From a virus (lineage: Duplodnaviria; Caudoviricetes), in IMG/VR virus record IMGVR_UViG_3300013121_000037, positions 48,345 to 112,344 of that record: 64,000 bases of DNA. One strand, written 5' to 3'. Each line of letters opens with the position of its first letter. Within the stretch, counting starts at the first letter, position 1. Under the pieces are notes generated by a model that saw only the letters and a program-made list of their open reading frames with translations, did not search any database and was not told where the DNA came from. Positions 24,561 to 48,695 of this stretch are shown here, one piece after another. A program made the position numbers and the translations under genes.

Positions 24561-25892
24561 TTGACACTCCACATGCCTAAAGGCAGGGGATTCTCGGTTC
24601 GACACCCGTTGCCAGCGCGTACGCTGGTCTGACACAGGCTCCCCGAGCATTTGCTTTGTCCGCGTGTCCCGCGGCCAACAGACGTAGACCTTCGTCCCGG
24701 ATATTCCGGGCGGCATTGAGATCGCGGTCATGAACGACGCCACAACAGCATATCCATTCCCGATCCGCCAATGTCAGCGCGTCGTTTTTCACGCCGCACA
24801 CATGGCACAGCCTGGTCGAAGGGAAGAAGCGGTCGATGGTGACGTGATGCTTGCGCTGCCAGACGGTTTTATAGGCCAGTTGGCGCACAAACTCGCCACA
24901 CGCCGCGTCCAGAAAACTCTTAGCCAGCTTGGTTCTCGCAAGGCCGCGAAGATTCAGGGACTCGACACACACGCCATCAAACCGCTTCACGATTGTCGCA
25001 CTGAGTTTATGAAGAAAATCCTGCCGCTGGTCGGCAGTCTGTTGATGGATACGGGCCACGCGCTGGCTGGCCTTGCGCTGGCGGTTGCTGCCTTTTTTGC
25101 AACGGGAGAAACGACGCTGGGCGCGGGCGAGTTTCCGTTCTTGCTTGCGGAAGAACTGCGGGGCAACTTTGCTCTCGCCAGTGGAGAGCATGACGAAGTT
25201 GTGCAAACCCAGGTCGATGCCTACGACGCTGGCAGGATCAGGCATGAGCAGAGGTGTGTCGGGCATCGTGAATACGACAACCAGCGTGACAAACCACTGA
25301 CCGCTCGCGTTCCGCTTAAATGTCGCGCTCTTGGTTTCGCCTTCGATGAGTTGGGACTGACGGATGCGCACCCAGCCAACTTTGGGAACGTAGACCTTGC
25401 CATCGGCCACCTTGACCCGTTGGGGAATGCGGAAACGTGGCGAGTCTTTTTTCTTGGCCTTGAAGCGGGGAAACTTGCCGCGTTTCTCGAAGAAATTGAC
25501 GAAGGCACGGTCCAGATCCTTGAGGGTTTGCTGCAAGGCTTGCGAATCAGTTTCGCGCAGCCATTCCATTCCTGGTTTGTGCTTCAGTTCAGTCAACTCG
25601 GCGGAAAGCAGCGCAGCAGGCATCGACTTGCCAGTCTCAGCGTAGTATGCCTTGCGGCGAGCGAGTGCCCAGTTCCAAACGAACCGACGGTCCGAAGCCA
25701 TTCGCATCAACGCTTGACCTTGCAGGAATGTCGGACGCATTCGGAATCGATAGCTTCTCTGGAGAACAGTCATGGGTCAAACGCTCTTTTGGTTTTCGAT
25801 GGCCGATTAGTTCGAGTTTTTGAGCAGTTTCATAAGCGTACGACCCTTCATCCCCATGAATAAATTCAGGGACTTTCTGGCCATACTGCACG
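24561..25892 (-). mobile_element. IS200/IS605-family, TnpB-only (IS1341-like) element
   Basis: Inserted 3' of TTAC; left end has AAAG then hairpin; right end has GAAT, hairpin, then TCAA; no target duplication; no tnpA. Confidence 0.9.
24577..25773 (-). CDS. tnpB: RNA-guided endonuclease TnpB
   Basis: YRFRMRP/RFVWN N-terminus; RuvC residues in GIDLG, VESL and DRDLNAARNI; CxxC zinc ribbon. Confidence 0.95.
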   Translation of the reverse strand: MTVLQRSYRFRMRPTFLQGQALMRMASDRRFVWNWALARRKAYYAETGKSMPAALLSAELTELKHKPGMEWLRETDSQALQQTLKDLDRAFVNFFEKRGKFPRFKAKKKDSPRFRIPQRVKVADGKVYVPKVGWVRIRQSQLIEGETKSATFKRNASGQWFVTLVVVFTMPDTPLLMPDPASVVGIDLGLHNFVMLSTGESKVAPQFFRKQERKLARAQRRFSRCKKGSNRQRKASQRVARIHQQTADQRQDFLHKLSATIVKRFDGVCVESLNLRGLARTKLAKSFLDAACGEFVRQLAYKTVWQRKHHVTIDRFFPSTRLCHVCGVKNDALTLADREWICCCGVVHDRDLNAARNIRDEGLRLLAAGHADKANARGACVRPAYALATGVEPRIPCL

Positions 25893-32762: not shown

Positions 32763-33115
32763 CAGCGCTGCTCCAGTTCTGCTGCCACCGCATCCCGTAA
32801 CTTTGGCACGGCCACCACCCGCTCGGCGTAATCCCAGAAGTCCAGAAAACATCGCAGGTCCGGGTGCTCATCCAGGTAGGCAGCGAACAACCGTTCGCCC
32901 TCGGCCACGGACCCCTCCAGACCACCGTTGAGGCAATAGGCCACCGGGCAGCAATGCGTGGCCAAGTGGCCCCAGTACGCCTTGAATGGCGGTGGTGATA
33001 CTGTGGCACCCTGCAAAATGTGTTCGGAGTCGTTGTCCAGTTCACGCAGCAAACTCTGGAGCACTTGGGTGCTGGTCTGCTGCATCACCTGCTGCCAGGA
33101 GTTTTTCCAGGTCAT
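32762..33115 (-). CDS. hypothetical protein
   Basis: Translationally coupled on both sides. Confidence 0.55.
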   Translation of the reverse strand: MTWKNSWQQVMQQTSTQVLQSLLRELDNDSEHILQGATVSPPPFKAYWGHLATHCCPVAYCLNGGLEGSVAEGERLFAAYLDEHPDLRCFLDFWDYAERVVAVPKLRDAVAAELEQR

Positions 33116-33285
33116 TGCTTGTCCCCCAGCAACTCCTGCCGCAGGATCACCACCTCGGGCGGCGCCGTGACACCCAACCGCACCTTGTCCCGGTAAATGT
33201 CCACCACCTTGATTTCCACCAACTTGCCATCGGATAACTGGATGACAATTCCCTCACCACCCAGCTTGCGTGAAAGTACCAGCAT
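33112..33285 (-). CDS. csrA: CsrA/RsmA family translational regulator (57 aa; absent from the ORF track)
   Basis: Hand translation MLVLSRKLGGEGIVIQLSDGKLVEIKVVDIYRDKVRLGVTAPPEVVILRQELLGDKQ; GGAGG RBS. Confidence 0.88.
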   Translation of the reverse strand: MLVLSRKLGGEGIVIQLSDGKLVEIKVVDIYRDKVRLGVTAPPEVVILRQELLGDKQ

Positions 33286-34036: not shown

Positions 34037-34071
34037 ACTGGGCAAAACTCGACTGTCTACTTTTGCGCAGT
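34037..34071. repeat. 35-bp palindrome at the downstream boundary of the RAMP module
   Basis: ACTGGGCAAAA CTCGAC T GTCTAC TTTTGCGCAGT. Confidence 0.95.
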
Positions 34072-34082
34072 GGTAGAAAATA

Positions 34083-34222
34083 AACCCTGCCCTGCCGTGC
34101 CCAGCCGCGCCCAACCCAGCGATGCCGAACCTCGCCCGACCTCGCCTTGCTACGCCCGCCCAGCTTTGCCGAGCCAGGCCTCACCCTGCCGAGCCAGGCC
34201 TCACCTAGCCCAACCCGACCGT
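34083..34222 (-). repeat. GGY-NN pentamer array 2 (about 27 units, 2 segments); putative guide-like ncRNA
   Basis: Minus strand GGT-CG GGT-TG GGC-TA GGT-GA GGC-CT GGC-TC GGC-AG..., with one 4-nt GGCG phase break. Confidence 0.9.
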
Positions 34223-34232
34223 GACACGCTAA

Positions 34233-34745
34233 TTAAGAACTCTTTTCTTCCAACTGATCCACGCGACTGGACAGGTTATCCAGAATGCGAGTGATTCCCG
34301 CTTGCTGGCGTGACAATCGCCGGGTCACCTCATACAGTTGGTTGTTGATTGTGGTCTGTGCGACATGGATAACACGCTCCTGTTCTGTCATCTCGTCCAG
34401 GCGTGCATTCTCCATCGTTTCCAGCGCCCATTTCATCTGCCGGTTGCCGCGCCGAGTCCTACTGTCAGCCAGTTCGCTGTGCTCGTTGGCTCTGGCCATC
34501 TTGTACCCGACATTGCGGATGTTGCGCAGCACGCGCTTGTGCTCACGTAACAAGCGGTGATTGGCGAGGGCAACCGATTGCTGCACCTCACGCTTGCTGT
34601 AACAGTGGTCGGTATTCTTCGACAACGCCACTGACAACTCATCGTAGGTGAACACCGTTCCCGGCACCGCTTCCTTCACCAGATCAATCAGCACGGTCGT
34701 GTTGCTCTGACCAGTATCGCGACCGATTTTGAATGTTGTTGCCAT
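34233..34745 (-). CDS. accessory protein of the RAMP/pentamer module, possible winged helix plus coiled coil
   Basis: Lies between the two arrays; FTYDEL...LRNIRNVGYK. Confidence 0.65.
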   Translation of the reverse strand: MATTFKIGRDTGQSNTTVLIDLVKEAVPGTVFTYDELSVALSKNTDHCYSKREVQQSVALANHRLLREHKRVLRNIRNVGYKMARANEHSELADSRTRRGNRQMKWALETMENARLDEMTEQERVIHVAQTTINNQLYEVTRRLSRQQAGITRILDNLSSRVDQLEEKSS

Positions 34746-34766
34746 AATCCACATCCTTTCCTGTTG

Positions 34767-34801
34767 AAAACCAGTGAGTAGAGCGTTGCTCTACTCACTG
34801 G
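34767..34801 (-). terminator. 14-bp perfect hairpin plus T-tract closing pentamer array 1
   Basis: CCAGTGAGTAGAGC-AAC-GCTCTACTCACTGG-TTTT on the minus strand. Confidence 0.7.
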
Positions 34802-34819
34802 CGTCTAAACATGCAGACT

Positions 34820-35120
34820 TTGCCTAGCCTTGCCCCGCCCTGCCTCGCCCGGCCGTGCAGCGCCGAACTCTGCCGTGCCCGGTCGTGCCTGCCCTGCCAA
34901 GTCCCGCCGTGCCCGACCTAGCACTGCCCCGCTTTACCCCGCCGAGCCTGCCTCGCCCTGCCTCGCCCTGCCGAACCCGGCCTTGCCTGCCCTGCCGCGC
35001 CACACCGGGGCTGGCCGGGCCTCGCCCGGCAGCGCCTATCCTGGCCCAGTCGTGCCTGCCCTGCTGCGCCGCGCCGCGCCTAGCATCGCCAAGCCCTGCC
35101 GAACCGGACCTAACTACGCC
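34820..35120 (-). repeat. GGY-NN pentamer array 1 (about 57 units, 5 segments); putative guide-like ncRNA
   Basis: Strict 5-nt period: near-invariant GGC/GGT plus a variable dinucleotide; segments split by 4-nt GGCA; starts at the RAMP stop codon. Confidence 0.92.
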
Positions 35121-35803
35121 TGCTGTTCCATTTGCTCAAAAAACTCTCTTACATCCGCGATGGAATTGCCGATGGTGGCGTCACTGTCTCTGGTCTTTCT
35201 GACGTGGCCACGGAAAGCACCGTAACCGTTGACGCGGTTGTCGCCGATCCTCTCGGTCTGTCCGGCCAATTCGACGATTTTCACCAGTTCATCGAAATCA
35301 AGTCCAGCGTCTGGGATGAATACCGCTGGAACCACCAATGCCCACGGAAAGAACTGCGGTCGAACACGCATCACCCGCTTGCCACGGATGCCAACTGACA
35401 GGCGCGAAGCAAATGCTGGATTGGCCATCAACCGCGCGATTTCGTCGTCCAGATTATTCACCTTGTCGCTTCCGTCGTAGATGAGAGCAACGTCCTGCTT
35501 GGTCATCAACAACGCTCGCTCAACTTGCTTGCCGAGTTTGTTGATTTTGCCAGTGTTTATCAAGCACTTGCGAACCTTGCTGCACGGTTGGCTAACAACA
35601 ATGCCATTGCCGTTGACAGATGCCGTGTAAATGCCACCCAACCACTCCAACCGTTCGATCTGCTTCAGGTCGTCATCGGTCTTCTTTTTCTTCGAGGTGA
35701 ACAACTTGATCTGCCGATTCACCTCATATTCAGGGTCTACCATTCGCGGGTTGTGGCAGAGCAACGGTGACTTCCCCAACAAAACAAACTCGATGTTGAC
35801 CAT
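35114..35803 (-). CDS. stand-alone RAMP / Cas7-like RNA-binding protein
   Basis: N-terminal strand plus SPLL(C)H; PCSKVRKCL resembling the RAMP PGSxhKGxhR motif; C-terminal G-rich loop IGDNRVNGYGAF. Confidence 0.75.
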   Translation of the reverse strand: MVNIEFVLLGKSPLLCHNPRMVDPEYEVNRQIKLFTSKKKKTDDDLKQIERLEWLGGIYTASVNGNGIVVSQPCSKVRKCLINTGKINKLGKQVERALLMTKQDVALIYDGSDKVNNLDDEIARLMANPAFASRLSVGIRGKRVMRVRPQFFPWALVVPAVFIPDAGLDFDELVKIVELAGQTERIGDNRVNGYGAFRGHVRKTRDSDATIGNSIADVREFFEQMEQQA

Positions 35804-35833
35804 GCTTAATTCCTCGTATTGTGTTGGTGGTTC

Positions 35834-35868
35834 ACTGGTCAAAACTCGACTGTCTACTTTTGCGCAGT
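35834..35868. repeat. 35-bp palindrome at the upstream boundary of the RAMP module
   Basis: ACTGGTCAAAA CTCGAC T GTCTAC TTTTGCGCAGT. Confidence 0.95.
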
Positions 35869-47874: not shown

Positions 47875-48695
47875 TGTCGGTTCCAAACCTGATCTGTCTG
47901 ATATCATTCTAGCGCTGGACAGTCCCCGCGTAAAGTAGAGCCAGCAGCACCGCCAGCGCCACCACAAACAGGGTAAGGCGCAGGCAGCGGCAAATGACTC
48001 CCCTTCAGCCGGTTTGCCGTTTCTTGCGCTGCAGCAACTTGGTAATAATCGCCGGTCCCAGCATATCATCCAGACGGGCATCGAAGCGCGACCACACCTC
48101 CGAATGCTTCAGCGTCTTGCTGTTGACCCGGTTCATATCCTTGAGGAATTCCTCCCAGAGTTTAGCGTGCTTGTCGTCGGGCAAGGTCCGCAAATCCAAC
48201 CCCAACCGGTTCATCTGCCGCCGGTGCAAAATACCTAGCCAACCCTGACGACGCTCCTCAATCGGTGGTTGCTGCCGTCTGGCCATGTCAGTACCTCGCA
48301 GAAGTTTTTTGGTCATCCTGGTTCGGCACAATATCAACGACGTGGCAAACGCCACCACGGCACACATGGTGGCACCCGCCCCTGCCAGAACCCATCCGGG
48401 TCCAGTTCCAGCATTCGCTGCAAGCCATCCCGCCGCAGGTTGGTATCACTCCCTCCATCCACCGCCCGCACCGCGTTATCAAACCAATCCAGCAACTGCT
48501 GCGCTTCCTCCAAAGTCGCCTGCGTTACAGCAGTACAACCAAACTTGCCTGCACGCAGTTCCCCGACAAAATCCCTGGCGCAGTAATACAACCGCAGCAA
48601 TTCATGGTGCGGTGGAAAACGTCTGGCCTCTCCCACTACTGGCCGGGTATCCGCCAGCGGCACCAATGTCAGCGTCAGTGTCAGCAGTACCGTAC

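Follow-up and report, generated by a model that had tools for sequence, protein, structure and literature searches.

Systems named VIPR, for Viral Interference Programmable Repeat, described in three 2026 bioRxiv preprints (10.64898/2026.04.26.720920, 10.64898/2026.04.26.720927, and 10.64898/2026.10.15.759431), combine a RAMP protein, Vipr, with vrRNAs of 9 to 16 YNNGG repeats, each with a hypervariable NN next to a conserved GGY; they carry an accessory gene, vap, are distributed mostly in viruses, and fall into seven types (10.64898/2026.04.26.720920). Here we report a locus encoding a Vipr homologue next to GGY-NN arrays in the IMG/VR virus record IMGVR_UViG_3300013121_000037 (Duplodnaviria; Caudoviricetes), of which positions 48,345 to 112,344 were analyzed as one stretch of 64,000 nucleotides (nt), hereafter called the window. 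We consider it very probable that this region is a VIPR locus in a phage genome, and that it belongs to a clade with staggered, tail-less vrRNA arrays. The original prediction, made from the letters of the DNA without database searches, had proposed a candidate RNA-guided system at this position, and had named VIPR as a system of this kind that may already be described. Indeed, VIPR has been described in the preprints, and thus the locus is not a new type of system.

In the published system, one Vipr protomer binds each repeat, and the flipped-out GGY is held by H17, R138, D177, W178, and R179, with K33 on the target backbone (10.64898/2026.04.26.720927). The guide GGYNN reads xNN on double-stranded DNA (dsDNA), which is called the 1-nt-skip rule, and this leads to transcriptional silencing (10.64898/2026.04.26.720920). 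Escherichia phage SUSP1 needs both vipr and vap1 to overcome a satellite (10.64898/2026.10.15.759431). Besides, the legend of fig. S18 in the discovery paper describes staggered arrays, whose vrRNAs come from positions overlapping by 1 nt, so that the end of one is the start of the next (10.64898/2026.04.26.720920).

The locus shares with the type II VIPR of SUSP1 a homologous Vipr with five of six contact residues conserved, GGY-NN guides of about 8 to 15 units, a phage-encoded location without cas genes or a CRISPR array, and a downstream accessory gene whose product is probably a distant Vap1 homologue. Whereas SUSP1 has a 40- to 60-nt pseudoknot tail after each guide, the guides in the window abut with 1-nt overlaps and are tail-less. 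Unlike SUSP1, the window also has an array between vipr and vap, a GDNR sequence in the G-loop, and a 30-residue C-terminal extension of Vipr, and the host of its phage is not enterobacterial. The closest published match of the locus is the staggered-array variant, here accompanied by a Vap1-like accessory gene.

A second comparison is with Cas7 and Csm3 of class 1 CRISPR-Cas systems (for example, 6ifn_E and 6xn3_G), which share with the window Vipr a RAMP fold based on the RNA recognition motif (RRM), with G-loop and thumb (Z of 9 to 10, with 150 to 168 residues aligned). According to published work, both kinds of protein polymerize on a guide RNA, on which each subunit has a fixed footprint. 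The sequence identity to the window Vipr is, in contrast, about 10%, and VIPR has a footprint of 5 nt, 2 of them pairing, versus 6 nt, 5 of them pairing, for class 1 effectors. The VIPR guide is built from the repeats themselves, whereas the CRISPR guide is the spacer between repeats. Neither a curated Cas7/RAMP match nor cas genes nor a CRISPR array, by which a class 1 CRISPR-Cas locus is recognized, was found in the window or the genome. The original prediction had noted no cas1 and no CRISPR array in the window, and this holds genome-wide: searches of the whole genome returned no Cas1, no Pfam RAMP match, and no CRISPR-like repeat arrays, with neither PF03787 nor PF01867 present, and PADLOC gave no hit.

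Vipr protein and guide arrays

The 229-amino-acid (aa) open reading frame (ORF), predicted to be RAMP-like from its motifs, begins with MVNIEF and contains SPLLCH, QPCSKVRKCL, and IGDNRVNGYGAF, as quoted in that prediction. In a phmmer search, its product matched the Protein Data Bank entry for the SUSP1 Vipr protein (36pp_D) with an E value of 2.8e-13 over residues 6 to 198 of 229, at about 30% identity, and an hhalign comparison of the clade profile with Vipr of Felixounavirus HY02 gave a probability of 99.5% and an E value of 1.4e-22. The protein falls in phrog_4652 of PHROGs, a family annotated as function unknown (E value of 4.6e-30), whereas a Pfam search of the protein gave no match, RAMP included.

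The structure of Vipr was modeled with AlphaFold2 from 39 homologues, with a predicted local distance difference test score (pLDDT) of 94.7. All of the top 50 structural matches of this model were Cas7-family proteins; the top Foldseek hits were all Csm3/Cas7 at a probability of 1.0, and a VIA-align comparison gave Z scores of 10.3 against Csm3 (6xn3_G) and 9.1 against 6ifn_E. The latter is the Cas7 query of the discovery pipeline, which takes a Z of at least 6 to Cas7 as its criterion. The predicted model shows the RRM core, G-loop, and thumb of a RAMP fold; the proposed comparison with Cas7 and Csm3 thus came out in favor of that fold. Five of the six contact residues are kept, namely, H17, K33, R148 (R138 in SUSP1), D188 (D177), and R190 (R179), and these five are invariant or nearly so in the 39-sequence alignment.

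We also observed that this Vipr and its nearest relatives have a C-terminal extension of about 30 residues (residues 200 to 229; window positions 35114 to 35203, minus strand) with a confidently predicted helix at residues 215 to 228. The extension is absent from most members of the clade, which are about 192 to 197 aa long.

The two arrays, A and B, comprise 89 pentamer units, of which 73 are canonical GGY. The entropy was 0.70, 0.30, and 0.77 bits at unit positions 1 to 3 and 1.96 and 1.87 bits at positions 4 and 5. In the 112,344-bp genome, no other in-phase GGY tracts occur on either strand, and both arrays lie on the vipr strand. Tracts were detected by counting in-phase GGY per 50-nt interval, and 47 intervals were at the threshold in the real minus strand, compared with 2 in 80 simulated Markov-1 strands. 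The observation of periodic arrays is therefore confirmed.

About 300 nt of strict 5-nt periodicity had been predicted to run from the vipr stop codon. The extent of this tract was right, as array A is 301 nt long and starts 4 nt before the stop codon, but its register is interrupted. Four times in array A and once in array B, the phase falls back by 1 nt, which divides the arrays into seven segments (Table 1). The segments tile exactly with a 1-nt overlap at GGCAG/GC, where the last G of one segment is the first G of the next, and GGCAG is the last unit at four of the five junctions. The remaining predicted parts, a 14-bp hairpin, an accessory gene, and a second array of about 140 nt, were found as a 15-bp stem, a 170-aa ORF, and a 139-nt array. 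An Rfam scan returned no family match, and no hammerhead ribozyme was found between the guides. As a separate observation, guide B1 (34156 to 34220, minus strand) contains a four-unit tandem internal duplication (GGTGA GGCCT GGCTC GGCA-), which points to slippage in the array as a way for guides to lengthen.

The 170-aa product of the accessory gene was also modeled with AlphaFold2 (pLDDT of 87.8), and in the model a winged helix at the N terminus precedes two long helices. Its top Foldseek matches were DNA-binding domains of the OmpR/PhoB/ToxR type, with template modeling scores of about 0.5 to 0.56 and a root mean square deviation of about 3 Å. An hhalign comparison of its profile with the HY02 phage gene that occupies the vap1 position gave a probability of 75.6% and an E value of 2.4e-5. 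Judged from these profiles, the protein is probably, not certainly, a distant Vap1 homologue.

Taken together, the region shows the features of a VIPR: a Vipr homologue with a RAMP fold, GGY-NN arrays on the same strand, guides of 8 to 15 units versus about 9 to 16 in the published systems, an accessory gene predicted to interact with DNA, a viral locus without cas genes, and no self-match at 80% or more of the NN positions.

Relatives and target searches

We collected 619 Vipr homologues and fetched the surrounding loci of 12 genomic or metagenomic and 30 viral contigs. Of the 12 genomic and 30 viral loci, 11 and 25, respectively (36/42), had pentamer arrays on the same strand at a distance of up to about 1.5 kb from vipr, and thus the co-occurrence of homologues and arrays, which had been suggested as a check, is borne out. 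Most loci without an array are cut off by the contig end, and arrays on the opposite strand occurred in only two loci. The accessory gene has a homologue in 34 of the 42 loci (11/12 genomic and 23/30 viral), usually directly after vipr.

Among the guide segments of the clade, the median length is 10 units, 124 of 181 end at a junction with a 1-nt overlap, and 127 of 181 end in GGCAG; the consensus of the junction, derived from 128 distinct contexts, is GGC-A-G followed by GC. The overlap pattern of the window and of the clade is like the staggered vrRNA arrays of VIPR as far as the legend of fig. S18 characterizes these, and staggering is thus a trait of the clade.

The closest relative, L108, is a 1.9-kb Logan contig with a Vipr that is 81% and a Vap that is 83% identical to those of the window. 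The gene order is the same, with vipr, a five-guide array, a hairpin, vap, and a second array, and the hairpin occupies the same position with its stem kept and the stem sequence different. None of the eight guides of L108 is like any of the seven in the window. Such a pattern is to be expected when a conserved scaffold carries exchangeable specificity.

In addition, three loci of one Competibacteraceae metagenome-assembled genome (MAG) (L006, L007, and L008) and one of a Dokdonella MAG from the same sample (L014) have near-identical vipr genes and some identical guides. They probably represent related phages or plasmids that binning assigned to different hosts. A search for cross-targeting among the three VIPR-carrying contigs of the one MAG found none.

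For target searches, the guides were converted to 1-nt-skip patterns in which degenerate units were masked; the searches needed exact seeds and covered part of the public sequence. In the phage's own genome, no site matched at least 80% of the NN positions, and the best match at skip 1 (21/28; 75%) was close to the maxima of shuffled sequences; other VIPRs likewise lack self-targets (10.64898/2026.04.26.720920). Guides B1, B2, A5, and A2 had no matches in IMG/VR-type viral contigs. In JGI (Joint Genome Institute) metagenome contigs, B1 had no matches and B2 had 11, none of which extended past the seed. Guide B1 gave no matches in 151 Gemmataceae genomes, with up to three mismatches allowed, or in 20 complete viral records of the clade.

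Some matches were considered as targets and rejected. Guide A1 had one match in the viral contigs (18/26 when extended), and A4 had four (18 to 22 of 24 when extended); the A4 sites lie in unrelated contigs of 42 to 63% GC without mutual homology and were judged to be due to chance. A run of seven units of guide A5 in one viral record was regarded as noise, because runs of seven were equally frequent at skip 0.

At the level of the clade, 151 guides from all loci were compared with 958 kb of clade genomes at skips 0 to 3. Runs of at least eight consecutive perfectly matched units occurred twice at skip 1 and not at all (0, 0, and 0) at the other three skips. In one, nine units match within a phrog_19042 gene that lies about 430 bp from the VIPR array of another phage, and in the other, eight units match within a gene for a major tail protein (phrog_807). 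The skipped base is at codon position 3 (the wobble position) in both cases, and the terminal GGCAG units are unmatched. These two hits lend modest support to the 1-nt-skip rule in this clade, and they also fit a handle role of the terminal GGCAG unit.

Proposed mechanism and competing explanations

By analogy with SUSP1, one Vipr protomer would sit on each pentamer, with GGY flipped into protein pockets and NN displayed. The filament would read dsDNA as xNN xNN and so on, skipping every third base; an R-loop triplex would form and block transcription, with Vap assisting. Assembly of Vipr depends on RNA. The original prediction had proposed this grip on GGY and display of NN as a discontinuous guide, and the homology to SUSP1 Vipr, the Cas7-like fold, and the published mechanism agree with it. 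It had left the target as DNA or RNA; the published dsDNA recognition, 1-nt skip, and transcriptional silencing favor DNA and narrow the proposal away from RNA. In the window, vipr and array A may form one transcript ending at the hairpin, with vap and array B following. The 1-nt register drop at GGCAG/GC would mark the boundary at which one guide or filament gives way to the next. The terminal GGCAG unit would be a handle outside the guide, and the guides presumably target genes that competing phages or other mobile elements carry in the host.

As a tentative proposal, which we hold with somewhat less than even confidence, the GGCAG/GC junction may itself be the punctuation that ends and starts filaments, perhaps directing cleavage, with the terminal GGCAG as a non-pairing handle. 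Maturation would then be unlike that of type II, and it may have a connection with the clade-specific replacement of GDWR by GDNR in the G-loop.

Several observations weigh against assigning the locus to VIPR. Sixteen of the 89 units (18%) depart from the GGY consensus, and none of the seven window guides found a credible target in the collections searched, phage and Gemmataceae genomes included, where the prediction had proposed to look for NN-string matches. SUSP1 W178, the G-loop tryptophan stacked on G2, aligns with N189, which is invariant in the clade, so that the G-loop reads GDNR versus GDWR in SUSP1, and GGY recognition may thus differ in detail from that of SUSP1. Support for the skip rule within the clade amounts to the two hits described above. 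No tail, hairpin, or ribozyme lies between the guides, and a hairpin is found only after the last guide of array A, whereas characterized type II vrRNAs carry a structured 3' tail. Since tail-less overlapping guides match the published staggered variant, this last point counts against membership in type II and not against membership in VIPR. Besides, staggered arrays, as the preprint words it, stand outside the architectures confirmed by small-RNA sequencing (10.64898/2026.04.26.720920).

The degenerate units and the failure to find a target in any collection would suit a locus that is VIPR by descent but decaying or idle, with drifted guides that match nothing and no current function. We regard this as unlikely. 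Both ORFs are intact and the contact residues are conserved, internal degeneracy of vrRNAs is reported to be frequent (10.64898/2026.04.26.720920), and the target searches had the seed and coverage limits given above. Moreover, L108 keeps the same architecture with a wholly different, full guide set, which indicates turnover of guides under selection and not decay.

Less probable still is that the clade is VIPR-like with altered recognition, that is, another skip length, an RNA target, or a different reading of the scaffold. The invariant N189 in place of W178, the internal guides without a 3' tail, and the failure to find a target of the window guides under skip 1 would be in line with such a change, whereas the scaffold is still GGY, H17, K33, R148, D188, and R190 are conserved, and the only strong cross-matches in the clade are those at skip 1, whose skipped base coincides with the wobble position.

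That the tracts are low-complexity coding sequence, a slippage artefact, or a protein-binding array lying beside a RAMP gene by coincidence has a negligible chance of being right: an ORF search can report spurious frames over the arrays, some of which gene callers annotated in relatives, but a 5-nt period with 1-nt register drops is incompatible with a reading frame, positions 4 and 5 have near-maximal entropy while positions 1 to 3 are fixed, same-strand linkage of arrays and vipr is seen in the 36 of 42 loci, and neither Rfam nor the terminator scan offers another identity.

Cassette, genome context, and significance

The VIPR locus forms a compact minus-strand cassette (34043 to 35862) of vipr, array A, a hairpin, the accessory gene, and array B (Table 1). 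Ribosome-binding sites precede both ORFs, a good one (GAGGAA) ahead of vipr and another ahead of the 170-aa ORF. The hairpin, which starts 17 nt after array A, has a 3-nt loop and a minimum free energy of -34.2 kcal/mol, and it is probably a terminator or end structure. A consensus scan for sigma-70 promoters and terminators gave nothing useful.

Table 1. Features of the cassette in window coordinates
Feature	Position	Strand	Remarks
23-bp palindromic element CAAAACTCGACTGTCTACTTTTG	35840..35862		Upstream cassette boundary, 37 nt before vipr start codon
vipr gene, 229 aa, Cas7-like RAMP protein	35114..35803	-	Homology and predicted fold
vrRNA array A, five staggered guides, 301 nt	34820..35120	-	GGY-NN units, exact tiling
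Guide A1	35120-35056	-	13 units
Guide A2	35056-34987	-	14 units
Guide A3	34987-34948	-	8 units
Guide A4	34948-34889	-	12 units
Guide A5	34889-34820	-	14 units
15-bp hairpin, then UUUU	34770..34802	-	Folding z = -4.2 against shuffles
vap-like accessory gene, 170 aa	34233..34745	-	Conserved beside vipr; winged-helix model
vrRNA array B, two staggered guides, 139 nt	34082..34220	-	GGY-NN units
Guide B1	34220-34156	-	13 units
Guide B2	34156-34082	-	15 units; ends GGCAG GGCAG GGTTT, then T-rich run
23-bp palindromic element, copy identical to 35840..35862	34043..34065		Downstream cassette boundary

The palindromic elements at the two ends belong to a 23-bp motif, CAAAAnnnGACnGTCnnnTTTTG, of which the window holds 32 copies (1768 to 62378), mostly intergenic, with none expected by chance. 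Because two identical copies bracket the cassette exactly, it looks like one module between boundary elements.

The source genome is that of a 112,344-bp phage, represented by a linear virus record that is 79% complete, and its viral context includes terminase and helicases, together with an annealing protein of the Rad52/Erf type. A gene for a 57-aa CsrA homologue lies about 800 bp downstream of the cassette (33112 to 33285, minus strand; PF02599, E value of 1.9e-15). A csrA gene is also found just upstream of a 69%-identical vipr in locus L110, and the pairing of CsrA with vipr may be conserved in this phage group. The window further encodes a 398-aa TnpB-type protein (24577 to 25773, minus strand) with the Pfam domains OrfB_IS605, Cas12f1-like TNB, and HTH_OrfB_IS605 and a match to phrog_506 (E value of 1.5e-110); besides VIPR, the phage thus has another, unrelated family of genes resembling those of RNA-guided nucleases. 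A Planctomycete is a possible host. A search for Pfam DUF1580, a possible Planctomycete marker that adjoins the 69%-identical Vipr in L110, gave no match in this genome, but control genomes were likewise silent, so that this negative is uninformative.

What is known of VIPR as a class is left unchanged by this locus. VIPR matters as a recent programmable DNA-recognition code distinct from CRISPR, and the locus provides a well-resolved environmental example outside the tested enterobacterial and Pseudomonas systems. It documents the staggered, tail-less architecture at single-base resolution, with the same GGCAG/GC junction recurring across dozens of related viral contigs. Furthermore, the clade offers two candidate natural targets, a major tail gene and a gene near a rival's VIPR locus, both of them matched at skip 1 and aligned to the wobble position.

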